The notes beneath the pieces are model-generated. The model had not been told where the DNA came from. It worked only from the letters and a program-made list of their open reading frames with translations, and made no database searches. 64,000 nt of DNA from an uncultured Bacteriovoracaceae bacterium (GTDB taxonomy: Bacteria; Desulfobacterota; Desulfomonilia; UBA1062): positions 85,556-149,555 of the forward strand of contig CAZEMO010000008.1 of the NCBI GenBank assembly GCA_964513375.1, in the 5' to 3' direction. Position 1 is the first letter of the stretch, and each line of letters opens with the position of its first letter. The position numbers and the translations under genes are program-made. Of the stretch, positions 7,454-47,733 are shown piece after piece.

Positions 7454-8017
7454 TTAAATGATTTTCAATATTTCAGGCACATGCCGTTCAGATGCCTGTG
7501 GAATGGACACCGGATATCCGAGTATGATGGGCGCTACGATGGTGCAGTCATCAGGAAGCCCGATTGTATCAAACAGGGACGGATCTCTGATATTGCCGCC
7601 AAGGGCGATCCAGCATGTTGAAAGCCCTCGATCGGTGGCCGAGAACATGAAATATGCAGCTGTTAATGCACTATCCACAGCAAGGGAAGAGCTGGATTCG
7701 GGTCCTGCTATCAGAACGAGACAGGGTGCATTGTAAAAGACGTTGAAGGTTTTATCCTTTAAGATGTCTGCATACATACTCAAAGTTGAGCCGGGATTAT
7801 TTCTTATATCATCAAGAAGGTTTCTTTTGCTTTCATCGGATATCTGTTTAATAAGATTCCGATCCCGGATAATGATGAATTTGCATGGCTGGGCATTACT
7901 TGCTGTGGGTGCAAGAGTCGTGTCCTGAATAATCTCTTTGATTGTTTCAAGCGGCACATCTTTGTTTTGAAAATCCCTTATGGCCCTTCTGTTTTTTAAG
8001 AGTTCACTGAAAGTCAT
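7454..8017 (-). CDS. nitroreductase family protein
   Basis: RRAIRDF...PTASNAQP is the nitroreductase signature. Length is 187 aa. Confidence 0.8.
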   Translation of the reverse strand: MTFSELLKNRRAIRDFQNKDVPLETIKEIIQDTTLAPTASNAQPCKFIIIRDRNLIKQISDESKRNLLDDIRNNPGSTLSMYADILKDKTFNVFYNAPCLVLIAGPESSSSLAVDSALTAAYFMFSATDRGLSTCWIALGGNIRDPSLFDTIGLPDDCTIVAPIILGYPVSIPQASERHVPEILKII

Positions 8018-9412: not shown

Positions 9413-10866
9413 CAGTATCTGTAATGATCGGGTTTGAACGGACCCTCGGGTTTAATCCCAATATAATCCGCCTGCTTCCTTGTAAGCTTTGTAAGCTTTA
9501 CCCCGAGCTTATCTAAGTGAAGCCTTGCAACCTCTTCGTCAAGAGCTTTGGGCAGCGTGATGACATCAATCTTATGTCTGTTCGACCAGAGTTCGATCTG
9601 GGCAAGAGTCTGGTTTGTGAAAGAGTTAGACATCACAAAGGATGGATGGCCGGTAGCACACCCAAGGTTCACCAGCCTTCCCTCTGCAAGAAGGTAAATC
9701 GAGTGCCCGTCAGGGAATATATATTTGTCCACCTGCGGTTTTATGTTCAGCCTCTTGATGCCTTTTTTTGTGTTTAGTATGTCAACCTGTATTTCATTGT
9801 CGAAATGGCCGATGTTGCACACAATAGACTGATCAAGCATTTTTCCCATATGCTCAAGCGTAATCACTTCGCAGTTGCCGGTTGCTGTTACAAAGACATT
9901 GGCCTCTTTCAGGGCATCCTCAACGGTCAAAACCTCAAATCCTTCCATGGCCGCCTGAAGCGCGCATATAGGATCGATCTCGGTAACAAGAACCCTGGCG
10001 CCAAAACCGTGCATGGATTTCGCACAGCCTTTCCCGACATCGCCGTATCCGCAGACACACACGACTTTCCCTGCAATCATGACATCGGTTGCACGCTTGA
10101 TGCCGTCTGCAAGCGATTCCCTGCAGCCATAGAGATTGTCGAATTTGCTTTTGGTTACCGAATCATTCACGTTGATAGCAGGAAAAAGCAGCTCTCCCTT
10201 TTCTTTCATCTGATAGAGCCTGTGCACGCCTGTCGTGGTTTCCTCAGAGATGCCTCTTATCTCCTTGACCATCCTGTGCCAGAATGTTTTATCTTTTTTC
10301 AACTGCCGCTTGAGGATATCATTTATTATTTGAAGCTCTTTATTCTCAGTAGGCTCATCTAAAATTTTCGGATTCTTCTCGGCATAATAACCCCTGTGTA
10401 TCATGAGCGTTGCATCGCCGCCGTCGTCAACAATCAGATTGGGCCCTGTTCCTTTAGGAAAGCTGAGGGCCTGAAGCGTACATTCCCAGTATTCCTCAAG
10501 CGTCTCGCCTTTCCATGCAAATACCGGCGTGCCGGTAGCAGCAATACCCGCAGCTGCATGATCCTGAGTTGAAAATATGTTGCATGATGCCCATCGAACA
10601 TCCGCGCCCAGATCTTTCAGCGTTTCAATAAGGATCGCCGTCTGGATCGTCATATGAAGACTGCCGGTGATCCGCGCCCCTTTAAGCGGCTTTTTTTTCG
10701 CGTACTTTTTCCTGAGCGCCATCAGTCCCGGCATTTCATGTTCGGAAACCTCGATTTCTTTTCTTCCGAAACCGGCGAGTGACATATCAGAAACCTTGCA
10801 TGTAAGCCCTGAATAATCCAGCATATTCATATTTGTTTTCCGGGCCATTATTTGCTCCTTTATCAA
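9412..10866 (-). CDS. ahcY: adenosylhomocysteinase
   Basis: 484 aa. It carries the SAHH signatures ([11 protein letters not shown]..., an NAD-binding GYGDVGKG). Confidence 0.93.
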
Positions 10867-12023
10867 ACCAGGTTTTTGAGGGCTTCGACCTTATCTGTCT
10901 TTTCCCATGAAAATTCAGGCTCATTCCTGCCGAAATGGCCGTAACCAGCCGTCTTCTTGTATATCGGTCTGAGCAGGTCAAGCGCCTCGATTATGCGCCT
11001 TGGCTTAAGCGGGAAAACTTCTCTCACCATTGCCGAGAGCTTTTCTTCGGAAACAGTTGAAGTACCCCATGTGTCAATCATAACGGATACTGGATCGGCC
11101 ACACCTATTACATAGGCAAGCTGTACCGTGCATTTTTTAACAAGACCTGCAGCTACGATGTTCTTTGCGATATAGCGAGCCATGTATGCGGCGCTTCGGT
11201 CGACCTTGGAAGGGTCCTTGCCGGAAAAAGCTCCGCCGCCGTGAGGAGCAAAACCGCCATAGGTATCAACTATGATCTTCCTGCCGGTCAGACCGCAGTC
11301 GGCATGAGGCCCTCCCAGAACAAACCTGCCAGTTGCATTTATATAATATTTGGTATTGTCATCAATCAGTTCAGTCGGGATTATTTTTTTAATCACCTCT
11401 TCGATAATGCCTTCCTTCAGCCTGTCGTAGCTAATATCCTCATTATGCTGTGCCGCAACGACAATGCCGTCTATTCTCTTTGGAACCCCATCCTTATATT
11501 CTACTGTGACCTGAGTTTTGCCGTCCGGCCTCAAAAACTCGAGTACTCCTTGTTTTCTGGCATCGGAAAGTCTCTTTGAAAGCCCCTGCGCATAATATAT
11601 AGGGGCCGGCATAAGTGTCGGGGTCTCATCGCATGCAAAACCGAACATCATACCCTGGTCACCTGCCCCCTGTTCCGCAAACATGCCTTCACCCTCGTTG
11701 ACGCCCTGTGCTATGTCTGGTGACTGCTTATCAAGGGTAACCATTACACCGCAGGTGTCCCAGGAAAAACCCATACCGCTGTCAGTATAGCCAATCTCTT
11801 TTATTGTCTGTCTGGCGACACGCTGGACATCAAAATTATGTTTAGTCGTTATTTCCCCAGCAACAACGACAAGACCTGTCGTTACAAGTGTTTCACAGGC
11901 AACACGCGCCGCAGTGTCATGAGCCAGTATCTCGTCCAGAACCGCATCCGAAATATGATCGGAAACCTTGTCAGGATGGCCTTCCGTTACTGATTCTGAA
12001 GAAAACAAAAAATCCTTTACCAT
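10863..12023 (-). CDS. metK: S-adenosylmethionine synthetase
   Basis: [16 protein letters not shown] and [19 protein letters not shown] motifs. The start overlaps ahcY. Confidence 0.95.
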
Positions 12024-12064
12024 TCTTTTCCTCCTTGATATCTCTGTTTATTCAGTGTTGATTC

Positions 12065-13456
12065 CTAGCCCTTTTTCTGGAGGCCAAGATACTCTGCAAC
12101 TTTTGTTGGATCAAGTTCAAGTCCGACTGGAGTATTCCTGTATTCGTCTCTTATTACAACCCCGTATTCAGGAGCAAAGCTGTCATCGAAATACATCTGC
12201 TGGAAACCCGAGAACTTGAGCTGGTGAGAGGTTGAATCCACAACGAAATTCGTATCCTTATCAAGCATGCCTGCCTTGAGCGCTTTCTTAAGTCCGGCGA
12301 CAGACTCGCCACCCTGGGTGCACACGACATGCCCATGTCTGTTTGATTTCAGCATGCCTTCCATAATTTCCGTCTCGGTTACGGTAATAGTCATGAATTT
12401 GTCGCTATAGAAACCCTCGACAAGTCTCTTGACTTTAGGAAAACTCACAGGATCGCCGATCATGGCTGCCTGAGCTACTGATGGAGACACCTTCATCGGG
12501 TGGAATTCACCGCTTTCTCGCCATTTAACAACGGGATCAGCATGATGACTCTGCACACCGAGAATTACGGGAAGCTCCTCTATTATACCCAGGTTAAGAA
12601 GGTCAAGGAACCCTTCCATAATCGCGGTTACATTGCCTGCATTTCCTATTGGAACTACCACAGCCAAGTTACCGGTCTTCCATCTCATCTGCTGCGCTAC
12701 CTCAAATGCATATGATTTCTGGCCCAGTATCCTTACAGGATTTTTGGAATTAAGCAGAAACACCTTGTAATCCTGAGCAAGCCTTTCTACAACACGCATG
12801 CAATCATCAAAAACACCCGGCAGTTCAATGACCGTCGCACCTGAGCCGAGAGGCTGAGAAAGCTGTTGGCTAGTTACTTTCCCTTTCGGAAGAAGAACTA
12901 CTGTTTTCACCTTGTCCTTGGGAAGATAGCTCAGGTAAAGTGCCGCCGCTGCCGATGTATCACCGGTTGAAGCACATATGCCCAGCACGCTATCCAATTT
13001 TCTGACCCTGATGACATGGTTCAGATAGCTTATGGCGGATGCCATCCCGCGGTCCTTGAAACTTGCAGACGGGTTGAATCCGTCATTCTTAACAATAAAC
13101 GGGGCGCCGACCCATTCCGAGAGTTCAGGATTCGCCTTTACGATAGGGGTGTTTCCCTCCCCGAGATAGATGATATCCTTTACCGGGAGTATGGGCAGTA
13201 TCAGCTCATGGAATCTGAATATACCTGAAAGGCTGTGAGTGTTTGTGGCCCTTCTGGCATCGAATATATCGCGCCATCTGCCTGGCGATTTTTTTTTCAG
13301 ATTACTAAATTCGGTATTTTCGATTATCAGCAGGGAATCGCACTGGGGGCATGTATAAATGAAATCATAGATGTCATAATTGTTGCCGCAGCCTATGCAT
13401 TTATAGGCAAGGGAACCACACATCTCTGGCATGTTTTCTTCAGCCATAGCAAACAA
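12065..13456 (-). CDS. thrC: threonine synthase (long form with N-terminal Cys4 zinc ribbon)
   Basis: SFKDRGMA places the PLP lysine in the correct motif. An N-terminal CxxC...CxxC zinc ribbon is present. Length is 463 aa. Confidence 0.75.
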   Translation of the reverse strand: MFAMAEENMPEMCGSLAYKCIGCGNNYDIYDFIYTCPQCDSLLIIENTEFSNLKKKSPGRWRDIFDARRATNTHSLSGIFRFHELILPILPVKDIIYLGEGNTPIVKANPELSEWVGAPFIVKNDGFNPSASFKDRGMASAISYLNHVIRVRKLDSVLGICASTGDTSAAAALYLSYLPKDKVKTVVLLPKGKVTSQQLSQPLGSGATVIELPGVFDDCMRVVERLAQDYKVFLLNSKNPVRILGQKSYAFEVAQQMRWKTGNLAVVVPIGNAGNVTAIMEGFLDLLNLGIIEELPVILGVQSHHADPVVKWRESGEFHPMKVSPSVAQAAMIGDPVSFPKVKRLVEGFYSDKFMTITVTETEIMEGMLKSNRHGHVVCTQGGESVAGLKKALKAGMLDKDTNFVVDSTSHQLKFSGFQQMYFDDSFAPEYGVVIRDEYRNTPVGLELDPTKVAEYLGLQKKG

Positions 13457-13562
13457 ATCCTATTAAAGACGTCTTTTGGAATGCCAAGTCATATAATACG
13501 CTATTGACTTTTTCAATACTTTTTTGGCACCCTAGCGCTCTACTACATAATAAGGAGATCAT

Positions 13563-14456
13563 ATGGCGGCTTTATCAAATTATGAGATTCCTGGCGGCAG
13601 GAAAATATCGAGCGGCAAGGTCAGAGAAATCTTCGATGTGGATGATAACCACCTCCTTATGGTTACCACTGACAGGCTTTCGGCATTCGACGTGGTGATG
13701 CCTGATCCGATCCCCGACAAGGGAGCAGTTCTCAATCGCATTTCGCTCTGGTGGTTTGATAAAATGAAGACTGTCATAAAAAACCATGTTGTCAGTTCAG
13801 ACATAAACGATTACCCCGCCCCCTTCAAAGGGGACGTCAGGCTGAAGGACCGTTCGATGCTGGTAATAAAGGCCAGACCACTGACAATTGAATGCATAGT
13901 CAGGGGCTACATCTCCGGCTCCGGCTGGAAGGAGTACAGGGAAAAGGGTTCCATTTCCGGCATAAAGCTTCCTGAAGGATTAAAGGAGTCCGACAGGCTG
14001 ACTGAGCCTATTTTCACGCCATCGACAAAAGCGGAAATGGGTCAGCATGATGAAAATGTCTCAGAAGAGGTGGCGAAAGAGCTTGTCGGCAGCGTAGTCT
14101 TCAACAAGGTAAAAGAGGCCGCATTGAAGATTTACAAAACAGCGGCTGACGAGGCACTGAAAAAAGGTATTATCATCGCTGACACCAAGTTCGAATTCGG
14201 TATAAGAAATGGCGAGATAATACTGATCGATGAAGTTCTTACTCCGGACTCTTCACGCTTCTGGCCGCTTGACAAATATGCTCCGGGAAAGGCCCAGCCG
14301 AGCTATGACAAACAGTTCGTCCGCGATTACCTTGAAACGCTTGACTGGGGGAAAAAGGCCCCGGGTCCGAAACTGCCTGAAGAAATCATCGTGAAGACTC
14401 GTGAAAACTATATTGAGGCATACGAGAAGCTTACCGGACTGAAATTCTCATCCTGA
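13563..14456 (+). CDS. purC: phosphoribosylaminoimidazole-succinocarboxamide synthase
   Basis: [11 protein letters not shown]...[13 protein letters not shown] is the SAICAR synthetase signature. An AAGGAG RBS lies upstream. Confidence 0.9.
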
Positions 14457-14457
14457 T

Positions 14458-15414
14458 ATGCACTTGAGGACCGCAGTCAAACTGCCTGTCATTCTTCTGC
14501 TTGTCTTTTCAATAAACGGCTGCGGCCTTTTTGCGGGACACGTTTCAAAAAGCCATATCCCCTGTTCCGTCGGGCATGACCATTTCATCAAGGTGAGTGG
14601 CGTCAACTATCACTACACCGAATATCCTGCATCGGGCAGGGATATACTGCTTATTCACGGTTTTGCATCATCTTCATATACTTGGGAAAGTATAGCGCCT
14701 CTTCTGCAGAAAAACGGCTTTCATGTCTGGGCGCTTGACATAAAAGGATCGGGATGGTCCGACAAACCGGCCCCTGACATTAATACAAAATATGACCTTG
14801 TCACACTGACGGATGAGATCGTCTTATGGATGGACGCGGTCGGCCTCAAAAAGCCTGTTGTTGCTGGGAATTCGCTAGGCGGGGCAATGTGTCTGCTGAT
14901 GGCTATCCGATATCCCGAGAGCATGGACGGTCTTATTCTCATCGATTCTGCTGCATACCCCAATCCGAAAATGAACAGGCTCAGAACAGCCGCTTCAACT
15001 CCAGGGACATTTGTTCTGAAAACATTTTTCAGCAGATCCATCATGAAAGGTCTGCTTAAATCCGGTTTTTATAATGATGAATTGATTACAGACGAACTGG
15101 TTGAAGGATATTATATGAGGCTTTCCAGTAATGGGGCAATCGATGCCCAGATCGCCATAATCAGAAACCTCGATCAGGCTGATTCGCTTATTATGCCTTA
15201 TATATCCAGGATACCGGATATTTCTTTGAGAACACTTCTGATCTGGGGAGACAATGATGAATGGGTTCCTCTCGACACGGTAGCCAGAGAATATAATGCA
15301 AGAATCAAGGGCTCAACGCTCGTTGTAATAGATAACTGCGGCCATTATCCGCAGGAAGAGGCGCCTGAAGCCACATCAAAGGCAATTAATGACTTCATTC
15401 TGTCAATGAATTAG
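14458..15414 (+). CDS. alpha/beta-fold hydrolase, lipoprotein signal
   Basis: Signal peptide with a Cys lipobox (SINGCG). HGFASS and GNSLGG form the nucleophile elbow. Confidence 0.75.
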   Translation: MHLRTAVKLPVILLLVFSINGCGLFAGHVSKSHIPCSVGHDHFIKVSGVNYHYTEYPASGRDILLIHGFASSSYTWESIAPLLQKNGFHVWALDIKGSGWSDKPAPDINTKYDLVTLTDEIVLWMDAVGLKKPVVAGNSLGGAMCLLMAIRYPESMDGLILIDSAAYPNPKMNRLRTAASTPGTFVLKTFFSRSIMKGLLKSGFYNDELITDELVEGYYMRLSSNGAIDAQIAIIRNLDQADSLIMPYISRIPDISLRTLLIWGDNDEWVPLDTVAREYNARIKGSTLVVIDNCGHYPQEEAPEATSKAINDFILSMN

Positions 15415-15452
15415 CCACAACCAGGGAATAATTCTAAAAATCAGATCATCTA

Positions 15453-16166
15453 TTATCTATATGCTTCCTGAGAAGCGACAACAGAGAGTATCCACTCTCT
15501 TGCGGTTTCAGTTACGGATTTTGTCGCCGGTTCCCTGCCCAAAAGGACTTCAGCAAACTGGCGCAGCATCTTGGCGGTCGCACCCCAGATAACTCCGTCA
15601 ACTGTCTCCAGACAAAAAAGTTCGAATTCATGGCCTTTGATCGATGCCTTCTCCATCATCCACGCATCATCTGACAGCACATCGGCAAGGGGTAGAAAAA
15701 GAAGCGTCTCTGATTCACTGTTTATTTTAAGCTCATACGGCCAGGGGACAATTCCCACAGCAGGGGTGATATGAAAACTGGATATGGTAATATAGTCATC
15801 AAGCAGCCCCAGTACATCAACATCATGGGGTCTGAGACCTATTTCCTCTTCAGCCTCCCTCAGAGCTGTTTCAACAGGTGATGCATCATCGGGTTCTGCA
15901 TGGCCCCCGGGAAATGAAATCTCACCCTTATGGTGTTCGACGCTCATTGAACGTTTTGTAAGAATAATCTGCGGTCTGTCATCGATAAAAGAGATCGGCA
16001 CGAGCACGGCGGCAGGTTTCATCCTTCCTGCGAAAATCTCTTTTCTAGTCCTGTTTCCCAGTCTGGAGCTTATCAGATATGCCAGTTTCTCTCTGCTTGC
16101 CAACTCGTCCATAGCGAAACAATGTAGCATATTCAGAGGGTAATGAACAGTCTTGACCGCCAGCAT
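15453..16166 (-). CDS. NUDIX hydrolase, CoA pyrophosphatase-like
   Basis: The Nudix box is GGHAEPDDASPVETALREAEEEIGL. The start is uncertain. The longest ORF (to 16352) overlaps the divergent gene at 16191, so I chose the internal Met at 16166. Alternatives are 16130 and 16112. Confidence 0.65.
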   Translation of the reverse strand: MLAVKTVHYPLNMLHCFAMDELASREKLAYLISSRLGNRTRKEIFAGRMKPAAVLVPISFIDDRPQIILTKRSMSVEHHKGEISFPGGHAEPDDASPVETALREAEEEIGLRPHDVDVLGLLDDYITISSFHITPAVGIVPWPYELKINSESETLLFLPLADVLSDDAWMMEKASIKGHEFELFCLETVDGVIWGATAKMLRQFAEVLLGREPATKSVTETAREWILSVVASQEAYR

Positions 16167-16190
16167 TATTGCTGTGTATAGATATGGGTC

Positions 16191-16781
16191 ATGAAGACAA
16201 CTTACCCCATAGAAGAATTCATCGAATTCATGGAAGACATGATGAATGATCTGGATCAGCTTCTTGAAAGCCCGACGGTTGAGAAGAAATCCGCCATAAA
16301 GTGGAGAGAGGATACAAAGAAGAAAATTTCCACGGTCTTCGGAGAAAACCATCCGTATGTCAGGGAATTCGAGGCTATCGATTTTGCAACCCCGTTCATT
16401 GACGGTTCTGACAAAGTCATGGTCGAGGACACATACAGACTTGGACTTGAAGACGGGAAATCATATCTGATCGCCATGATGGATGAACTTGAAAGCGAAT
16501 ACTACAACGTATTCGGCATGATGGATATTGAGACAACTTTTTATGAGATGGGCAAGTACATAATTGCAAAGATAGAAGACCCCGCCGTCAGGGAAGACCT
16601 GCTTCAGAGAATCTCGATTCTGAGCGAGGGGCTCGTTTCCGGGGACATCGACGGCAAGGTCATATCCGAACAGCTCAGATACATAAGCCAGATGGACAAG
16701 GGCCTTTTTAAGATGATCGTTCCGGTCTTTGCATGGTATTATGTGGGTGCAGACAAATCAGGCGACACGATCCCGAACTGA
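16191..16781 (+). CDS. hypothetical protein
   Basis: 196 aa, acidic, with no recognisable motif. The codon usage matches the neighbouring genes. Confidence 0.45.
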   Translation: MKTTYPIEEFIEFMEDMMNDLDQLLESPTVEKKSAIKWREDTKKKISTVFGENHPYVREFEAIDFATPFIDGSDKVMVEDTYRLGLEDGKSYLIAMMDELESEYYNVFGMMDIETTFYEMGKYIIAKIEDPAVREDLLQRISILSEGLVSGDIDGKVISEQLRYISQMDKGLFKMIVPVFAWYYVGADKSGDTIPN

Positions 16782-16822
16782 AAAAGAAATACGACAGCAA
16801 ACCAAAAACATAAGGAGTAATA

Positions 16823-18394
16823 ATGCCAAAAATTGAGAGGGTATTGATCAGCGTAACAGACAAGGCCGGGATAGCCGCTTTTGCAAAAGACCTTGCTTCT
16901 TTCGGCGTGGAGATAATATCAACAGGCGGGACTGCAAAAATGCTAAGGGAGAGCGGCCTTGCCGTAATAGACATATCGGACTTCACCGGTTTTCCCGAGA
17001 TGATGGATGGAAGGCTCAAGACCCTTCATCCGAAAGTACACGGCGGCATGCTTGCACTCAGAAGCAACCCGGGACATGTGGCTTCGATGAAGGAGCACGG
17101 TATAAAGCCGATAGATATGCTTGTGGTAAACCTTTATCGCTTCGAAGACACAGTGGCCAAGGGCGCAGAGCTTCATGAGGCCATAGAGAATATAGACATC
17201 GGCGGGCCGGCAATGCTTCGCGCCGCATCAAAAAACTACGAATTCGTGAGCGTAGTCACGGATCCGGCAGACTATGCACCCATCATCGAAGAAATGACTG
17301 CTTCGGGAGGAGCCGTCAGCGCAAAGACCAACTTCAACCTTGCCAGAAAGGCTTTCTCCCTGACCGCCCGCTATGACGCTGCCATTTCGAATCACCTTCA
17401 GGGCATAGACGTGGAAGAAGGCCAGTTCCCTCTTACATATACCGTGCAGTATAACCGCAGGCAGATCATGAGATACGGCGAGAACCCGCATCAGAAGGCT
17501 GCCTTCTATGCCGAGACAAAAATCGATCAGCCTTCAATAGCAACTGCGGAACAGCTCTGGGGTAAGGAGCTTTCATACAACAACATCATGGACTCGGATG
17601 CCGCGCTCGATATGATAATGGATTTCGACAAGCCAGCGTGCGTCATTCTGAAACATTCCAATCCATGCGGGGCCGCACAGTCGGACTCATCTCTAGTAGA
17701 AGCCTACAGGAATGCATTCGCCGTCGATAAGGTCAGCGCATTCGGGGGCATAGTCGGACTGAACAGGATTGTCGATGCCGAGACCGCCCGGGCTATTGGA
17801 GAGGTGTTCACCGAGGTCGTCGTTGCGCCCGGTTATACCGACGAAGCCTTGAAGATTCTCGAAGAAAAGAAAAATATCAGATTACTTAACGTCCCTGAAA
17901 TACTTGCAGGTCCCAGCGCCAAAAAGCAGATGGCATCAACGCGCAGGGTTGTGGGCGGGCTTCTGCTACAGGACAGGGATATGGGGACCATCGACCTCAA
18001 AAATGCAAAGTTCGTCACAAAAAGAGCCCCGACCGCGGAAGAGCTTGAAGCGCTTCAGTTCGCATGGCGCATAGTAAAGTTCGTCAAGTCTAACGCCGTT
18101 GTCTATGCCTCAAAGAACCAGCTCATAGGCGTCGGCGCAGGACAGATGAGCCGTGTCGATTCCTCAAGGCTTGCTATCCTCAAAGCGGAAAATGCAGGGC
18201 TGTCGCTCAAAGGTTCGGTCGTTGCATCGGATGCTTTTTTCCCGTTCAGGGACGGCATCGACGAGGCAGCGGGTGCGGGTGCGACTGCGGTTGTTCAGCC
18301 GGGCGGATCGGTACGCGATGAAGAGGTCATCGAAGCTGCCAACGAGCACAATATGGCGATGGTATTTACAGGGATGCGACATTTCCGCCATTAG
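16823..18394 (+). CDS. purH: bifunctional AICAR transformylase / IMP cyclohydrolase
   Basis: [12 protein letters not shown]...[12 protein letters not shown] covers the MGS-like domain and the AICARFT domain. Length is 523 aa. Confidence 0.95.
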
Positions 18395-18518
18395 TTTTGC
18401 TTCGCATTCAAGCCCTATCATTGTCGGCTGCGTCAGAACGCTCCTCAGCATACGTTAAAGTATGCCTGCGTCGCTTCCTCCTGGCCTCCTCGATATCATC
18501 TTGAATGCAAAGCAAAAC
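18394..18518 (+). repeat. MITE-like inverted-repeat element, copy A
   Basis: 19-bp terminal inverted repeats: GTTTTGCTTCGCATTCAAG ... CTTGAATGCAAAGCAAAAC. The core is about 85 % identical to the reverse complement of 46650-46755. Confidence 0.75.
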
Positions 18519-18759
18519 TTTATAAAGAGCTCGATTACAACAGCAATCCGCGTCGCTCCTTGACTTGCTTTGTTATAACGCCATGTAAGAAACTTGATAT
18601 TTAATAAGGTCAGGAGTGTTGCAATAAAAAAATTAAATGGAAACATTCTGGTTTCAGCATTGTAAAATTTCATCTTTACAATAACTTTTTTTATTGACCT
18701 CTCAAGTTAACTGTTGCATGTATTAAACTACTTGGAATAATAAGTGGGGAGATACGTAT

Positions 18760-19029
18760 ATGATCATTGATTCTTCAAGGATGATACCGGTAACAAGACT
18801 TCAAAAGGAGCTTCCTGCAAAAATCCGCGAGGTGAGCTCGGGAGATGAACCGCTTTATGTACTGAAAAACAACCATATGGAGGCCGTTATTGTCTCCGCC
18901 GCTGAATATGAACAATTAAAAAACGCACTTGATGTAGTCGAGCAGTTTGAAATCGGCGACATCGTAAAAAAACGCATGAAGAAATATGACAGGTCTCAAA
19001 ATATCTCTTGGGATGAGCTCAAAAAATAA
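18760..19029 (+). CDS. type II antitoxin, Phd/YefM-like
   Basis: 89 aa. It sits immediately upstream of the RelE/ParE toxin and overlaps it by 1 nt in a TAATG arrangement. Confidence 0.65.
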   Translation: MIIDSSRMIPVTRLQKELPAKIREVSSGDEPLYVLKNNHMEAVIVSAAEYEQLKNALDVVEQFEIGDIVKKRMKKYDRSQNISWDELKK

Positions 19030-19406: not shown

Positions 19407-20684
19407 ATGAAAGTTCTCGTTATAGGTTCTGGAGGCAGGGAACATGCCCTTTGCTTCAAAATAGCCAAAAGTCCGCTGGTCGATACGGTTTTCTGTGCGC
19501 CGGGAAACGGCGGCATAGCTACAGATGCCGAATGCGTGAACATTGACGTAAGCGATTTCGCATCGCTTATCAGATTTGTAAAATCAAACGATGTAGGACT
19601 TACGGTGGTCGGACCCGAAGTCCCGCTTTCAGAGGGTATTGTCGATGTTTTCTCCGCAGAAGGGCTCAAAATTTTTGGACCGGACAAGAAGGCTGCCATG
19701 CTGGAAGGCTCAAAGGTTTTTTCAAAGGAGTCCATGAAGGAATTCTGCATTCCTACAGCTGAATTCTGTACCTTTAATGACTACGATTCTGCAAAAGACT
19801 ATGTAGGAAAGGCATGCTTTGAGCTTGTCGTCAAAGCGGACGGCCTTGCCGCAGGGAAAGGAGTCATAGTCACATGCGACAAGGACGAAGCTTTCAGAGC
19901 GCTCGACGAGGTCATGCTGGACAAGGCTTACGGCAGCGCCGGGAATACTGTAGTCCTCGAAGAAAGGCTTATCGGCGAGGAGGCTTCCTTCATCGCAATA
20001 TGCGACGGTGAGAATATCGTTCCACTTGCATCTTCGCAGGACCATAAACCCGTCTTCGATAACGACGAGGGGCCCAACACCGGAGGCATGGGTGCATATT
20101 CACCTGCGCCCGTAGTTGATGAAAAGATATTCGGCGAAGTCATGAATAATGTACTTTATCCACTTGTCAGAGGGCTCAAGAAAAAGGGCATCACATATAA
20201 AGGCGTCATTTATGCGGGTCTCATGATCACGGATAAAGGTGTTTACGTGCTTGAATACAATGTCAGGATGGGAGACCCGGAGACTCAGCCCCTCCTTATG
20301 AGGCTCAAAAGCGATATCGTACCTGTTATGCTGGAAGTGGCTTCGGGCGGCAGCATAAAGGACATGTTACTTGAGTGGGAGAATGGCGCAACGGTCTGCG
20401 TTGTAATGGCCTCAGGCGGCTATCCCGGTGGTTACAAGAAGGGCTTGCCCATATCCGGCATCGAAAAAGCCGACGCCATACCCGGCGTAAAGGTCTTTCA
20501 TGCTGGCACAAAAAAAGACGGCGACACCATAGTGACATCGGGAGGTCGGGTGCTCGGCGTGACAGCACTGGGGCCGGACGTCAAATCAGCCATAGATAAG
20601 GCATACAAGGCGGCAAAGCTCATAAATTTCGAGAGCATGCATTACAGGAAAGACATCGGGAGAAAGGCGCTTATCAGAGAATAG
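19407..20684 (+). CDS. purD: phosphoribosylamine--glycine ligase
   Basis: MKVLVIGSGGREHAL and an ATP-grasp domain. GGAGG RBS upstream. Confidence 0.95.
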   Translation: MKVLVIGSGGREHALCFKIAKSPLVDTVFCAPGNGGIATDAECVNIDVSDFASLIRFVKSNDVGLTVVGPEVPLSEGIVDVFSAEGLKIFGPDKKAAMLEGSKVFSKESMKEFCIPTAEFCTFNDYDSAKDYVGKACFELVVKADGLAAGKGVIVTCDKDEAFRALDEVMLDKAYGSAGNTVVLEERLIGEEASFIAICDGENIVPLASSQDHKPVFDNDEGPNTGGMGAYSPAPVVDEKIFGEVMNNVLYPLVRGLKKKGITYKGVIYAGLMITDKGVYVLEYNVRMGDPETQPLLMRLKSDIVPVMLEVASGGSIKDMLLEWENGATVCVVMASGGYPGGYKKGLPISGIEKADAIPGVKVFHAGTKKDGDTIVTSGGRVLGVTALGPDVKSAIDKAYKAAKLINFESMHYRKDIGRKALIRE

Positions 20685-20704
20685 TGGTGAGTCAGGAGTG
20701 TTGA

Positions 20705-21430
20705 GTGGTGAGCAATAAAGAATCAAATACAAATACTTGGATTAATGTACTCTACAAATATAATTATCCCTATAATTTGAAGCATTATATGAATGCTTCA
20801 AATCATAATAGTTGGTTCAGTTTATCTAGTAAAACAGGTAACAGAGATGACACAATAAAATTTGAGGATCATTTCAGAAATCATGCAAAAGATGCAATTG
20901 CCCCTTGGCTTGAAGTGATTTTCTGGAAAATGTTTAGCACTGGAATAGATGCAGCAAATGATAGATCTGAAAAAACAGAAAGATTCTTCAAAGTTCAAAA
21001 TACTAACCCTTCCGAATTATGGGATACTTGTAATGACTTTACAAAAGTTCCTACCAAAGAAAATCTAAAAAGAATTATGAGTCTTTTAAATATATATTCT
21101 GGAATAGCTATTGCTATGACTTTCCCTGCATTTGTTAACCCAGAACAATTTCCAATGATAGATAAACACATTGCTTGTTGGATCAATAAAAACTATTTCA
21201 AATTTAATTCATTTATTCCTTCCGAATACCAATTGAGGAAGCAATCTTCACTTGGTAAACTTTCAATTATTGATTATGATTTTTGTAAAAGTTGGATTGG
21301 ATGGTGCAAATATATGGCAGGAAAATTGTCTGAAATTACTGATATTAAATGGAGAGCAAGAGATGTTGAAATGGCTGTATTTACTGCGAATAGAACAGGT
21401 ATAAATCTTGAACCATTAGTAGTACTTTGA
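20705..21430 (+). CDS. hypothetical protein encoded on a low-GC (~33 %) insert
   Basis: GTG start. The composition is strongly AT-rich compared with the flanking genes. I recognised no family. Confidence 0.45.
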   Translation: MVSNKESNTNTWINVLYKYNYPYNLKHYMNASNHNSWFSLSSKTGNRDDTIKFEDHFRNHAKDAIAPWLEVIFWKMFSTGIDAANDRSEKTERFFKVQNTNPSELWDTCNDFTKVPTKENLKRIMSLLNIYSGIAIAMTFPAFVNPEQFPMIDKHIACWINKNYFKFNSFIPSEYQLRKQSSLGKLSIIDYDFCKSWIGWCKYMAGKLSEITDIKWRARDVEMAVFTANRTGINLEPLVVL

Positions 21431-34318: not shown

Positions 34319-36417
34319 GACTCGAACACCTCCCCTTTTTTGAACCTTGCCCATACAGCTTCGAACCAGTCATCAGGATCGGGCACGGGCCTTACCGGCA
34401 CAAATTCGCTGTGTGTATTTCCCCTTTTATCGAACCATGTTTCGATAACCATACCGGTCAATGCCTTGCCTTTACCGGGCCTGCTTTTGGATTTTCCTTC
34501 TGCCGGAATACATACGGAATCTTCATTCCCCTTTTCTCTATAAATAAACGACCCTCTCCCCTGCCTGAGACTTTCAAGCAGCTTAAGCGATGCATCAAGC
34601 ATGGCCCTCTCGGCAATAAGAATATCTATGTTTTTAAGCCAGGCCCTCACCTCTGATATTTCTTTAACGCCGGAGGAGAGGTGCTTACGCAGTTGTCCCG
34701 AATTTGCGGACATGGCCTTTTTTGTCCCTGAAATGCCCCTTATTATTCCAAGAGCAGAAGACGCTCTCTTCTGTATTTTCAGCCTTTCTTCAACGGGGTT
34801 TATCCGTTTCTTTGATTGAAGCGCACTCTCAATGACTTCAGGCAGCCCACTGATGTTGACGGCATTTCCGCTCCGGGCGTTCTTTTCTGTCTTGATCCTG
34901 TGCGCAATGCACTGGGCCGCCCTCAGACTGCCGACCTGCCCCGCATTAAGAGCGCTGCCTCCGGGACGGTATATGCCGTGAGTCCCTGCCGCCTCTCCTA
35001 CGGCAAAAAGATTCTTTACGCTTGTTTCCCACCATTTGCCCACTGCAAGCCCGCCGTTTAAATGCTGGTTGCATACCGCTATCTCAAGGGGCCTTTTCTT
35101 AAGGTCCACGCCTTTAGAAAGATAAAGCTCATAAGCTGCCATGTTCATCTTCATCAAACGCTCAACCGGCTTGTCTCCGACTGCCCCTGATTTTTTAAGA
35201 TACTCTTTTGCAACTTCAGGCAGTCCGTTTATCGAGAAACTCTTTCCAGAATAAACCGGATTGCGGGTGAAATCCATATAGACCTTCCTCCCAAACTCCA
35301 CCCTCTCCCTGTAAACAAGGAGGTCGATCATCGAAGAGCCCGGCACCTTCCTCACATCGAACGGCCATTCATAGCCTTTAAGGAAAATCATCCCGCACAT
35401 CGTCTGCCAGTCTTCAAAATAAGGCGTCAGAAAATGCCTCTTATCCGTTCCGTCGGCATTCATTGAAAAATAATCAGGTATAACCTGCTGAAAACTCCCT
35501 GACAGATTCCACCTCGGATTCACCGAAGAAATGCCGAACTGGCTCTCGGTCAGATTGCACCCCCTTGCGCCGGATAAAAGCGCTACCCCGAGAGAACCGG
35601 TCTGCTCACTTGGATACACACTGTCAGCATATAAAGCAGCAGGACCTCCTGTCCCCCAGATCACATAATCTGCCAGTATCACCTGCATGCAGTTACTACT
35701 GTCCAACGCAACAACACCCCGGACAGAATTCTCCCTATCTCCCACCCCTCTTTCCCTCAAGGGAAAGAGGGCAGTAGATTTATCTAATCCGCACACGTGC
35801 GGATTAGATAAATGTTTAGCCTCCTCCTGGACAGGAGGGGGATGGGGGAGGTCGAATCCGTCATTGTCAGTAAGTATTTTTATAACTTCCATCTTTTCGA
35901 TGATAGTGACGCAAAGACGTTTTGCTTCGGCCAGGAGTTTTTCATGCATCATAATCGAGGTGCGTGGTCCGGCCGAGGTCGCCCGGGACGCGGTATCATG
36001 GTCTGTCCTGTAGCCAGGGTAGATTCCGTATTCGTTGAAGGGGAACTCCACGCCCAGACTGCACAGATGGGAAAACGACTCGGATGAAAGTGCGGCCTCG
36101 ATCAGTGCGGTATCGCCATGCATGGCCCCGCCAGAGAAAAGGTCTTGAGCCATTTTATATGCACTGTCTCCGGATGGAGAGCACGGGTTGAGCCTGTAAT
36201 AAGTCTGCTTGTCGGAGCCGGTATTTGCAGATGTCCCCAGGTTTGAGCCCTCTGTTATTATGGCTATATCGTCGATTCCGAATCTTTTGAGCCTGATTGC
36301 CGCATTGAGCGATGACGCGCCCGAGCCGATTATGGCGACTTGATAAAACAGTGGTGAGTGGTCAGTGGTGAGTGGTGAGTTAATAGAAATATCTGATTTG
36401 GAGGATTTCTTTTTCAT
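34315..36417 (-). CDS. FAD-dependent oxidoreductase (fumarate reductase/succinate dehydrogenase flavoprotein-like), 700 aa
   Basis: VAIIGSGASSLNAA is a dinucleotide-binding motif. The N-terminal roughly 25 codons are encoded by a short tandem DNA repeat, so the start is uncertain. Confidence 0.7.
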   Translation of the reverse strand: MKKKSSKSDISINSPLTTDHSPLFYQVAIIGSGASSLNAAIRLKRFGIDDIAIITEGSNLGTSANTGSDKQTYYRLNPCSPSGDSAYKMAQDLFSGGAMHGDTALIEAALSSESFSHLCSLGVEFPFNEYGIYPGYRTDHDTASRATSAGPRTSIMMHEKLLAEAKRLCVTIIEKMEVIKILTDNDGFDLPHPPPVQEEAKHLSNPHVCGLDKSTALFPLRERGVGDRENSVRGVVALDSSNCMQVILADYVIWGTGGPAALYADSVYPSEQTGSLGVALLSGARGCNLTESQFGISSVNPRWNLSGSFQQVIPDYFSMNADGTDKRHFLTPYFEDWQTMCGMIFLKGYEWPFDVRKVPGSSMIDLLVYRERVEFGRKVYMDFTRNPVYSGKSFSINGLPEVAKEYLKKSGAVGDKPVERLMKMNMAAYELYLSKGVDLKKRPLEIAVCNQHLNGGLAVGKWWETSVKNLFAVGEAAGTHGIYRPGGSALNAGQVGSLRAAQCIAHRIKTEKNARSGNAVNISGLPEVIESALQSKKRINPVEERLKIQKRASSALGIIRGISGTKKAMSANSGQLRKHLSSGVKEISEVRAWLKNIDILIAERAMLDASLKLLESLRQGRGSFIYREKGNEDSVCIPAEGKSKSRPGKGKALTGMVIETWFDKRGNTHSEFVPVRPVPDPDDWFEAVWARFKKGEVFES

Positions 36418-36474
36418 AATTTTTTTCTCATGTCTCTTAACTCCTGACTCCTTACTCCAATCTCATGCATTATC

Positions 36475-45422: not shown

Positions 45423-46628
45423 CTACTTTGTCATGTCGAAAATCACTTTGAGAGGGTCGCTCTCAAGTGATGTCTCGACAGCCTTCTGAGCATCATCCAG
45501 TTTGAACCTGTGCGTAATGAGCTTTTCAAAAGGATACTCCTTCGAGTACTTCTGCATCATGTTCATGTGCTGATAATAGCCGGTATGGGGATGATTGGTG
45601 TTTCCGATAAGGAGTACGTTTTTAGCCGCAATATCCCTGTGGATGTTTAGCGCCACTTCCCCGCAGTCGACAAAATTCCCGGTCTCTATGTAGGTGCCGC
45701 CCCTTCTGGTCATTTCGAGGCCTTCCTTCACGCATTCCGCGGTCCCGACCACTTCAACGACGACATCCGCACCCCTTCCGTCCGTGAGGTCCTTGATAAT
45801 CTTAATCCTCTCCTCCTTAGTGGTTACGCTTATGTCGATTCCGTAATCCGCGCCGAATTCCTTTGCTATCTCGAGTTTTTTCTTTGACGGGTCTACCAGT
45901 ATTATTTTGCCCGCACCGAGCATCTTCGCCTTTGCTATGTGCATCAGGCCCATTGCCCCGCCGCCCTGGATTACAACGGTGTCGGCAAACCCGAAGCCCC
46001 TTGATTCGATTCTTGAGAACTCCTTGGCCCTGTCAAGCGTCGAGGTCACCACGAATATCTCGGCCATGGCCCCGAATTCATCCGGCATGCCTTCGGGCAC
46101 TTTATAGACCCAGGCCCCTTTCGGAACGTACATGTACTCGGCCCATCCGCCCGCCACATACGGGTGGACGTTGCTCGGATACGACAGTCCGATGGTCGTG
46201 TTCTTTGCGCAGAACGGATAAGCGAATATGTGCCTGCAGTACCAGCAGTTTCTGCATACGACATTCGGGCACATCGTGACCCTGTCCCCGATCTTGAGCT
46301 CGCCGCCGTGATACTCGATCAGATTCTTATCCTCGAGATGCATCTCCACTATCTCGCCCACGTTCTCGTGACCGTGTACCGCCGGATACGCCATCTCCTG
46401 CTCGGCCTCGGTGCCGCCGTATAAGATTCTTTCCTCGCCGCCCCTGTAGGCATGCTTGTCTGTCCCGCATATGCCGGACATGCGCATCTTGAGGATAAGC
46501 GCGCCCCTTTTGAGCTTGGGCCAGGGCAGCTGCTGAACTTCCATCCTGCCGGGCTCGACCATGACAGCCGCTTTTATCGTCTTTCCTTCTACGTAATCCT
46601 TCTCACCATTTATATAAGTCTCCATCAT
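45423..46628 (-). CDS. zinc-dependent alcohol dehydrogenase family protein
   Basis: GICGTDKHAYRGG is the catalytic Zn motif. A Rossmann motif GGGAMG is present. Confidence 0.8.
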   Translation of the reverse strand: MMETYINGEKDYVEGKTIKAAVMVEPGRMEVQQLPWPKLKRGALILKMRMSGICGTDKHAYRGGEERILYGGTEAEQEMAYPAVHGHENVGEIVEMHLEDKNLIEYHGGELKIGDRVTMCPNVVCRNCWYCRHIFAYPFCAKNTTIGLSYPSNVHPYVAGGWAEYMYVPKGAWVYKVPEGMPDEFGAMAEIFVVTSTLDRAKEFSRIESRGFGFADTVVIQGGGAMGLMHIAKAKMLGAGKIILVDPSKKKLEIAKEFGADYGIDISVTTKEERIKIIKDLTDGRGADVVVEVVGTAECVKEGLEMTRRGGTYIETGNFVDCGEVALNIHRDIAAKNVLLIGNTNHPHTGYYQHMNMMQKYSKEYPFEKLITHRFKLDDAQKAVETSLESDPLKVIFDMTK

Positions 46629-46640
46629 TCACTCTCCTAA

Positions 46641-46760
46641 TTTCGCTTTGCATTCAAGATGACACCGAGGAGGCTAGGAAGGAGCGACGCAGGCATACTG
46701 TTAACGTATGTCGAGGAGCATCCTGACGAAGCCGACAAAGGAGCCGCTTGAATGCAATGC
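46641..46760 (-). repeat. MITE-like inverted-repeat element, copy B (inverted relative to copy A)
   Basis: Ends are GCATTCAAG ... CTTGAATGC. The core is about 85 % identical to the reverse complement of 18403-18509. Confidence 0.75.
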
Positions 46761-46767
46761 GGAATAA

Positions 46768-47733
46768 TCATGTTGGGTAGCTTATTGTGTAAATGTGTGC
46801 GCCACCGTTCCTTGGCCCTTTTATGACCGATTCGATTTGCTCTTTAGGCCTCTGCGTCATCTTATCGATCGGGGGAAGCTTTCCAGCCGGGAATTTCGTC
46901 ATGATTTCATTGACGAGGTCTTCCAGATAATCCATTGCCGCTTCCACTCCCGGTTTCGCTTTTTCGGCGGACGCAAGCGTGCTTTTTCCGACAACGCCTT
47001 CAGGCGTGCACAGCAGTTCCATTCCAGTAAGCCCCATATGATCATAAAACCTCATGGGATATCCGTAGGCGAGCCCTGACTTATCAACGATGCCGTCCTT
47101 TATGAACATCTCACCCTTTGTATCGACAGCGTCCTTCATCTTTATCATTTCAGGAAAGAGCGCCAGGGAAAAGGATGTTTCGCATTCGTCAGCATGGACG
47201 AAAGGCGTCTCAAAAGGCCCTCCATGCGCCTTGTCCCTTATGTGCGGCCTTATAGAAAACCACCAGTTGAGATACGCGATCACTGCGGGAACCTGGTATT
47301 TCTTACCGAACTGATGGATAGCCATGGGTATGACATAGTCCTGCGCGTGGCCGTTGATGAATATCTGCTTTCTGAAGCCCGCGTTCCAGAAGCCGGCAAT
47401 CATCGCACGGAGATATGCGGCCAGATCTTCCTCCGGAACCACGATTGTGCCGGGCATTCCCAGATGATTGAACGGATGAGACCCATACCATACCGGCTGG
47501 GCAACGGTGCATCCTGTTGCAAGGGCCACCTGCTCGGCAAGCCTTGTCAAGAGGAACGTGTCCTCGCCTGCGCAGGCCTGAGGGCCATGATTTTCAGTGC
47601 TGCCCACAGGAATGATTATAAGGTCGTTCTTTGTGAGTCTTTCCTCGATTTCCCTGCCGGTCATGTTCTGAAAATATATGCCGCTCGCCAGATCCATATG
47701 GCCGCCATCAGGTGGAATTTTCCATTTTCCCAT
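46768..47733 (-). CDS. creatininase (creatinine amidohydrolase) family protein
   Basis: LIIIPVGSTENHGP is the creatininase family signature. Confidence 0.7.
   Translation of the reverse strand: MGKWKIPPDGGHMDLASGIYFQNMTGREIEERLTKNDLIIIPVGSTENHGPQACAGEDTFLLTRLAEQVALATGCTVAQPVWYGSHPFNHLGMPGTIVVPEEDLAAYLRAMIAGFWNAGFRKQIFINGHAQDYVIPMAIHQFGKKYQVPAVIAYLNWWFSIRPHIRDKAHGGPFETPFVHADECETSFSLALFPEMIKMKDAVDTKGEMFIKDGIVDKSGLAYGYPMRFYDHMGLTGMELLCTPEGVVGKSTLASAEKAKPGVEAAMDYLEDLVNEIMTKFPAGKLPPIDKMTQRPKEQIESVIKGPRNGGAHIYTISYPT

Follow-up and report, generated by a model that had tools for sequence, protein, structure and literature searches.

The window, a stretch of 64,000 nt from contig CAZEMO010000008.1 of an uncultured Bacteriovoracaceae bacterium, carries two inverted copies of a short non-coding element, which is interpreted here as a probable miniature inverted-repeat transposable element (MITE). 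Copy A follows the purH gene and copy B is placed between a creatininase-family gene and the gene of a Zn-dependent alcohol dehydrogenase. The two segments (18394-18518 and 46638-46762) represent the same imperfectly palindromic element in opposite orientations and have an identity of approximately 84%, which agrees with the value of about 85% given in a first-pass annotation of the same DNA. The repeat search of the window paired positions 18399-18517 in inverted orientation with 46641-46760, the two halves of the alignment showing 90% (59 nt) and 78% (60 nt) identity. The core 16-mer of the element has exact matches at these two sites of the window only (chance expectation of 0.29 with up to three mismatches allowed), and no third copy was found when the 64-kb window was searched with the family profile.

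The purH gene (AICAR transformylase/IMP cyclohydrolase; 16823-18394, plus strand) is an open reading frame (ORF), for which the Pfam domains MGS and AICARFT_IMPCHas were identified on the identical protein. Its stop codon TAG (18392-18394) directly adjoins the start of copy A, which covers 123 nt (18395-18517) with the C-rich strand on the plus strand and is recognized by the family profile with an nhmmer E-value of 3e-36. The first-pass annotation had the element overlapping the purH stop, its boundary being one base too far out; the consensus start is at 18395, immediately after the TAG. On the other hand, the 19-bp terminal inverted repeat with a single mismatch which it had proposed was recovered, as segment 18394-18518 begins with GTTTTGCTTCGCATTCAAG and ends with CTTGAATGCAAAGCAAAAC, and these match as inverted repeats in 18 of 19 positions. 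Within the consensus boundaries, the left terminal inverted repeat is located at 18395-18412 (TTTTGCTTCGCATTCAAG) and the right one at 18500-18517 (CTTGAATGCAAAGCAAAA), both given on the plus strand. The central hairpin (18448-18465, plus strand) is formed by GCATAC (18448-18453) and GTATGC (18460-18465) around the loop GTTAAA. The tips of this copy are degenerate, with TTTT...AAAA in comparison to TTCC...GGAA of the family. Copy A is an older insertion at the purH stop and probably no longer mobile, because its tips have mutated.

Copy B (46641-46764, 124 nt; nhmmer E = 8e-36) has its C-rich strand on the minus strand, where its termini read TTCC...GAAA. Its central hairpin, located at 46693-46711 and read on the plus strand, consists of GCATAC (46693-46698), the 7-nt loop TGTTAAC and GTATGT, with one G-T wobble. 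The hairpin GCATAC-N6-GTATGC, previously ascribed to both copies, is therefore present as such in copy A but not in copy B. The creatininase-family gene (46768-47733, minus strand) belongs to the same operon and precedes copy B, and Pfam PF02633 was assigned to the same gene in L156, a re-assembly of the same genome. The Zn-dependent alcohol dehydrogenase gene (45423-46625, minus strand) is downstream, its 400-aa form starting at 46625. Along the minus strand, the order is the creatininase TGA (46768-46770), a TTA directly after this stop (46765-46767), the element, a second TTA (46638-46640), GGAGAGTGA and the ATG of the dehydrogenase; the second TTA directly precedes the ribosome-binding site GGAGAG of the dehydrogenase gene. 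Located in the spacer between two co-oriented genes, copy B is almost certainly transcribed within the mRNA of the operon.

Both copies fold into structures far more stable than those of dinucleotide shuffles (z from -3.5 to -9.9). The energies of copies A and B are -57.2 and -51.4 kcal/mol for the G-rich strand, and -41.6 and -40.9 kcal/mol for the C-rich strand, respectively. No credible ORF was found inside either copy, in accordance with the earlier description of the element as non-coding.

A dispersed family with three-base target duplications

The pattern GCATTCAAG...CATAC...CTTGAATGC was searched across 185,579 species genomes and 30 loci were retrieved. Approximately 24 of these have 103-106 nt between the two cores and align in full length with the window copies. 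The remaining six are of other lengths with unrelated interiors, and about 11 chance matches were expected according to our own estimate. The hosts are metagenome-assembled genomes (MAGs), which under the labels of their submitters belong to Desulfobacteraceae, Desulfosalsimonadaceae, Desulfococcus, “Deltaproteobacteria” and Acidobacteriota, the labels being mostly of Desulfobacterota. Desulfomonilia contribute four copies, and six are found in a single “Bacteriovoracaceae” MAG. This MAG is a close relative of the window: its locus L025 is collinear with window positions 10728-18555 at 90.1% identity, and contains an orthologous copy A at the same purH stop.

The respective scan of metagenomes with one terminal repeat gave at least 120 matches. 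All metagenome figures hold for the matches listed, and this applies also to the metagenome part of the 82 copies used for flanks and placement and of the 79 copies that were aligned. At least 68 full-length copies are found among these matches. Three independent short-read assemblies with an identical purH all end 84 nt past its stop, inside copy A, because repeats break assemblers. In the plasmid collection, BLAST searches with the element and with its terminal repeat gave no real match, and the 18-mer scan of viral contigs gave zero matches. Rfam showed no match at the gathering score over the whole window, and in region 18300-18800, with E-values up to 10, it showed two chance-level matches only, both outside the element. 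In the searchable literature, with ISfinder outside its scope, neither a description of this MITE family nor a named MITE in Desulfobacterota was found. The family is dispersed, widespread in sediment bacteria and ordinary in kind. The first-pass annotation had proposed a small non-autonomous repeat family and had named a mere local duplication of two copies as the contrary case. The former is borne out by the approximately 24 genome copies and at least 68 metagenome copies, together with the target duplications and the empty site described below; the copies are dispersed in unrelated contexts.

The consensus of the 79 distinct aligned copies is approximately 123 nt long and has the form TTCC-N5-GCATTCAAG ... 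(ATCAT)CTTGAATGC-N5-GGAA. Its interior contains conserved CTGCGTCG and CCTCC blocks and a central hairpin of 4-7 bp. Throughout the alignment there is little or no variation in the GCATTCAAG core, and the terminal core stem is paired in 99.6% of the cells. The element is asymmetric and its orientation can be defined, with one end continuing as ...CAAGCGGC/CCCT and the other as ...CAAGATGA.

The length of the element ranges from 121 to 124 nt. The size class of 123 nt includes 49 of the 82 copies, and with the duplication it amounts to 126 nt, that is, a multiple of three. In 32-36 of these 49 copies, three of the six frames are open throughout the element, with no sign of a conserved protein. 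These open frames recall repeats which are tolerated in frame, like RPE and the 107-bp form of Correia, and may be a simple effect of base composition. Two coding candidates were rejected. The first was a short protein on the G-rich strand, starting from the ATG in CAAGATGA, for which the ORFs vary from five codons to read-through and the substitutions between subfamilies show no synonymous bias. The second was an ORF spanning the element in loci L027 and L031, whose translation looks spurious.

Small elements of 85, 160, 168, 211 and 235 nt with the same ends and different interiors were also found among the metagenome matches listed. An element of approximately 127 nt in L006 (3827-3954) is bounded on both sides by the same terminal repeats (GCATTCAAGATGACA) and has a TTA duplication and an unrelated interior with the hairpin GGGCGCAA-AGCA-TTGCGCCC. 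In L028, a local tandem duplication of approximately 126 nt (2700-2870) includes a solitary terminal repeat (2738-2770) and stands beside a full copy (2867-2989).

The triplets flanking the element are identical in 48 of the 82 copies and they are always of the form TNA (TTA in 21, TAA in 19, TGA in 6 and TCA in 2 cases), whereas the next triplets outward, which served as control, are identical in one copy of the 82. The element integrates at TNA and three bases are duplicated. In the reconstructed target, the triplet is preceded by C in 20 and followed by G in 28 of the 48 cases. When the flanks were tested for a TA dinucleotide target, they did not conform to it: the MITE flanks are 3-bp TNA, and they cannot be a TA duplication because duplications of TGA and TCA, which lack TA, also occur.

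An empty counterpart of the copy B site was found on the contig of P0001, the closest homologue of the copy B dehydrogenase (91% amino-acid identity); the creatininase-dehydrogenase spacer there is 15 nt, known by its length alone from the gene coordinates. The spacer of the window is 142 nt, and when the element (124 nt) and one triplet (3 nt) are subtracted, 15 nt remain, exactly as in P0001. In three relatives with 84-85% identity the element is absent and the two genes are separated by 60, 34 and 102 nt; the site is filled in the re-assembly L156. Copy B was inserted cleanly into a 15-nt spacer between co-oriented genes, and TTA was duplicated.

The placement of the copies was examined with crude gene calls (ORFs of at least 80 codons), and the respective numbers are approximate. 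In 33 of the 82 copies, the triplet that was duplicated serves as the stop codon of such an ORF, and in 43 of the 82 a stop of this kind is at most 6 nt away. In the same loci, stop codons make up about 7.8% of the intergenic-plus-stop TNA sites. Within the recipient spacers, the stop was used in 9 of 30 cases against 8.0 expected, and 12 of these 30 spacers are shorter than 45 nt. A recognition of the stop codon as such was rejected, as its use within the spacers is close to chance, and this implies a bias toward very short junctions and gene ends, or survival there. TNA is always a stop codon on one of the two strands, that is, TAA and TGA or their complements TTA and TCA, and thus an insertion on a stop codon regenerates a stop. 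The surviving copies are found mainly at stops and very short junctions, where the stop is restored by the duplicated TNA and no essential function is lost.

The IS630-family partner and the proposed mechanism

Among the terminal-repeat matches listed from metagenomes, 54 fall outside the canonical copies. An inward search for the partner repeat revealed a sharp class of 1112 bp, represented by nine loci (L046, L051, L073, L109, L125, L127, L130, L132 and L139), with relatives of 1123, 1151 and 1158 bp having the same ends among the matches listed. The 1112-bp element has two overlapping frames, with intact orfA and orfB joined by a frameshift at a run of eight adenines (A8). The first frame encodes a helix-turn-helix protein and the second a DDE domain with ...MFQDEARFG...VVDGASSH...LPPYSPELNPAE.... 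The fused product matched the NCBIfam model NF033545 (“IS630 family transposase”) with 159.8 bits, the cut-off being 100, and Pfam DDE_3 at 1.9e-18; HTH_33 was also matched. The left end of the element in L051 (23-1134), TTCCTATTTGCATTCAAGATGACAC, is nearly base for base the right end of the MITE. The right end is a looser copy of the repeat, and the reading frame extends into it. The proteins of the different insertion-sequence copies diverge up to approximately 50%, and the ends are kept in all of them. The first-pass annotation had suggested looking for a cognate transposase with matching terminal inverted repeats, and these 1112-bp elements of the IS630 family provide it.

Judging from the sequence, it is highly probable (approximately 0.9) that both segments of the window are copies of a non-coding MITE of approximately 123 nt that depends on an IS630-family insertion sequence of 1.1 kb for its transposase. 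The ends of the MITE, 18-25 bp long (TTCC-N5-GCATTCAAG(ATGA)), are the same as those of a group of these insertion sequences and would serve as common substrates. The transposase would be made from the two overlapping frames across the A8 slippery run. By analogy with IS630/Tc1-mariner elements, its N-terminal helix-turn-helix domains would bind the repeats and its DDE domain would excise the element by cut and paste in trans; insertion would follow at a staggered cut, and the repair of this cut would yield the duplication. As the flanks show, integration takes place at TNA, preferably C-TNA-G, with three bases duplicated. Three-base duplications of TAA are on record within the IS630-Tc1-mariner group, in the Fot/pogo elements (PMC7386202), and for this reason a bacterial IS630 subgroup that duplicates TNA is plausible but not proven. 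In the searchable literature, in the scope given above, nothing specific was found on an IS630 member with a TNA duplication.

Several points weigh against this reading. It is from matching ends that we infer mobilization by an IS630-type transposase. The classical duplication of IS630 elements is TA, in many cases within CTAG, and not TNA as found here. The flanks of the autonomous copies are direct TNA in 6 of 11 cases, and in four others they are TAA...TTA, three of which appear as C-TAA...TTA-G; the latter flanks could be explained by a duplication of TA if the tips carried one more A/T, and they leave the exact cleavage geometry unsettled. Copy A is flanked by TAG and CTT, without a clean target duplication, and for copy B the empty site in P0001 is a match in length. 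The tblastn search with the transposase gave no match in the window, nor in any of the 30 genome loci, and when the solitary terminal repeats of these loci were searched for a partner, the duplicated fragment of L028 was the only result. Finally, the interiors of the MITE and of the insertion sequence are not similar to each other, and therefore the MITE is not a simple deletion derivative.

Conservation of orthologous copies and rival explanations

In addition to a MITE origin, many copies, including copy A, may have been taken over by their hosts as a transcript hairpin, acting as a stabilizer of the mRNA 3′ end, a processing site or an intercistronic regulator. This extension is considered here as a tentative one, of rather low probability. 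It is suggested at first by the slow divergence of orthologous copies (4-7%) in comparison to the four-fold sites of the adjacent genes (about 35%). In detail, copy A (18395-18517) and its counterpart in L025 (7666-7788) differ in 5 of 123 positions (4.1%), whereas 92 of the 257 four-fold sites of the adjacent purH differ (35.8%; binomial p = 3e-17). The copies of L027 (6830-6950) and L031 (2191-2311) differ in 8 of 121 positions, six of which lie in one patch of 10 nt, and 28 of 81 four-fold sites beside them differ. Either selection or gene conversion is indicated by this slow divergence. Of the five changes between copy A and L025, two convert an A-U pair into G-C and are compensatory, which fits selection on a hairpin, but changes in a palindrome can also arise by template switching between its arms or by gene conversion, without any selection.

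Across the family, the central hairpin and the inner stem are paired in 97.2% of the cells and show a covariation of 0.200 (shuffles, 0.106; slid partners, at most 0.046). For instance, one pair of the central hairpin is GC in 52, AU in 16 and UA in 9 copies, and another is CG in 67 and UA in 7. However, related copies inflate the covariation counts, and any transposon is expected to have complementary ends. Where a copy adjoins a stop, the gene upstream is directed into the C-rich orientation in 24 cases and into the opposite one in 10 (p = 0.024), and both window copies are placed where co-transcription is necessary, which is in favor of a role in the transcript; on the contrary, the prediction of intrinsic terminators showed no terminator-like site at either window copy, and Rfam showed no match. 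A combined scenario, in which the gene-end copies are kept by selection as transcript structure and an IS630-type subgroup with a 3-base stagger (C-TNA-G) regenerates the stops, is likewise doubtful. If true, the selected transcript structure would explain the low divergence of orthologs, the compensatory stems and the orientation bias.

The comparison with L025 also showed that the spacer 3′ of copy A contains well-kept blocks (window 18519-18560 and 18575-18620, including CTTTATAAAGAGCTCGATTACAACAGCAATCCGCGTCGC and TTTGTTATAACGCCATGTAAGAAACTTGATATTT), which may be regulatory sequence for the downstream gene. At approximately 7835-7915, 3′ of its copy A, L025 contains about 80 additional nucleotides with a TTGACG...CGTCAA palindrome; this insert has no counterpart at window position 18568 or thereabouts and may be another small mobile element. 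Short GTGGTGAG-rich repeats, for example AGTGGTGAGTCAGGAGTGTTGAGTGGTGAG, are located right after stop codons at window 20680-20714 and 36347-36381, and at L028 2600-2625. A complementary CT-rich stretch is found at window 36420-36460, beside the repeat at 36347-36381. The GTGGTGAG-rich repeats seem to form another small repeat motif, unrelated to the element, in the lineage of the window.

As far as the origin of the element is concerned, a Tourist-like MITE moved by a transposase of the IS5 family or of the PIF-Harbinger type is very improbable. IS5 subgroups and PIF/Harbinger are the classic source of 3-bp TNA/TWA duplications, and it is this feature of the family that had suggested such an origin. 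It was ruled out by the IS630 partner, as the transposase encoded between the same ends is of the IS630 family and not of the IS5/DDE_Tnp_4 type; furthermore, TAA duplications are already known in the IS630-Tc1-mariner group, in Fot/pogo (PMC7386202).

Even less credible is an origin as an integron attC site or as a REP/BIME palindrome mobilized by a RAYT tyrosine transposase, despite the fact that the element is intergenic, palindromic, located after stops and present in many copies. REP/BIME sequences are palindromes of 20-40 nt, associated with RAYT, without terminal repeats or target duplications such as those of this family. The element is 123 nt long, has terminal inverted repeats of 18-25 bp and duplicates 3 bp of its target; a DDE transposase is its partner, and the attC core sites RYYYAAC/GTTRRRY are not matched by its ends. 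Of the label “MITE/REP-like” in the first-pass annotation, the MITE part stands, and the REP-like part was abandoned because of terminal inverted repeats of this kind and the target duplications. A local duplication of two copies or a chance palindrome without a family, which the presence of only two copies in the 64-kb window might suggest, is contradicted by more than 90 copies elsewhere in unrelated gene contexts and is practically excluded.

Related systems and significance

The closest known system to the IS630-linked MITE described here is that of RUP and IS630-Spn1 of pneumococcus. RUP is a 107-bp MITE of Streptococcus pneumoniae, tied to IS630-Spn1 by its terminal repeats and its TA target (PMC2229807). 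Like the present family, it is a non-coding intergenic MITE of approximately 100 nt, with ends matching an IS630-family element which is thought to act in trans (PMC2229807). The differences are that RUP has 107 bp and is inserted at TA, whereas this family has approximately 123 nt and is inserted at TNA, with unrelated sequences; that RUP is hosted by Firmicutes and this family by MAGs labeled as Desulfobacterota and others; and that RUP tends towards insertion sequences, whereas this family tends towards gene ends. The Correia/NEMIS elements of Neisseria are similar in being short MITEs with terminal inverted repeats, which are co-transcribed and form long hairpins in mRNA, some of their size classes having open frames (PMC2229807). 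They differ by their TA target; they also have an IHF site and are processed by RNase III, and no identified cognate transposase is cited for them (PMC2229807).

Stowaway of plants and Fot/pogo of fungi are likewise non-autonomous derivatives moved through shared terminal repeats, but they are eukaryotic, and Stowaway uses TA, whereas Fot duplicates specifically TAA and not TNA. The ERIC/IRU elements of enterobacteria are imperfect palindromes of approximately 127 bp in transcribed intergenic regions, with unrelated sequences; like Correia/NEMIS, they resemble this family as long hairpins that are co-transcribed. Orthologous copies of ERIC are also more conserved than expected for neutral DNA, and to our knowledge no matching transposase is known for them.

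The family is mildly unusual in its TNA duplication, its crowding at stops and short junctions and the slow divergence of its orthologs; these features are worth a note, they are not a surprise, and the general understanding of MITEs remains unchanged. For annotation, the family matters as it breaks short-read assemblies and sits in operons of uncultured sediment bacteria, and the consensus, the ends and the partner insertion sequence permit masking of the family and dating of its copies. With regard to mechanism, it may represent a natural bacterial IS630-type example with a 3-base TNA duplication, in contrast to the well-studied ISY100, which is TA-specific. As regards the host, orthologous copies diverge slowly, a concrete hint, open to testing, that hitch-hikers of this kind may become useful parts of transcripts.

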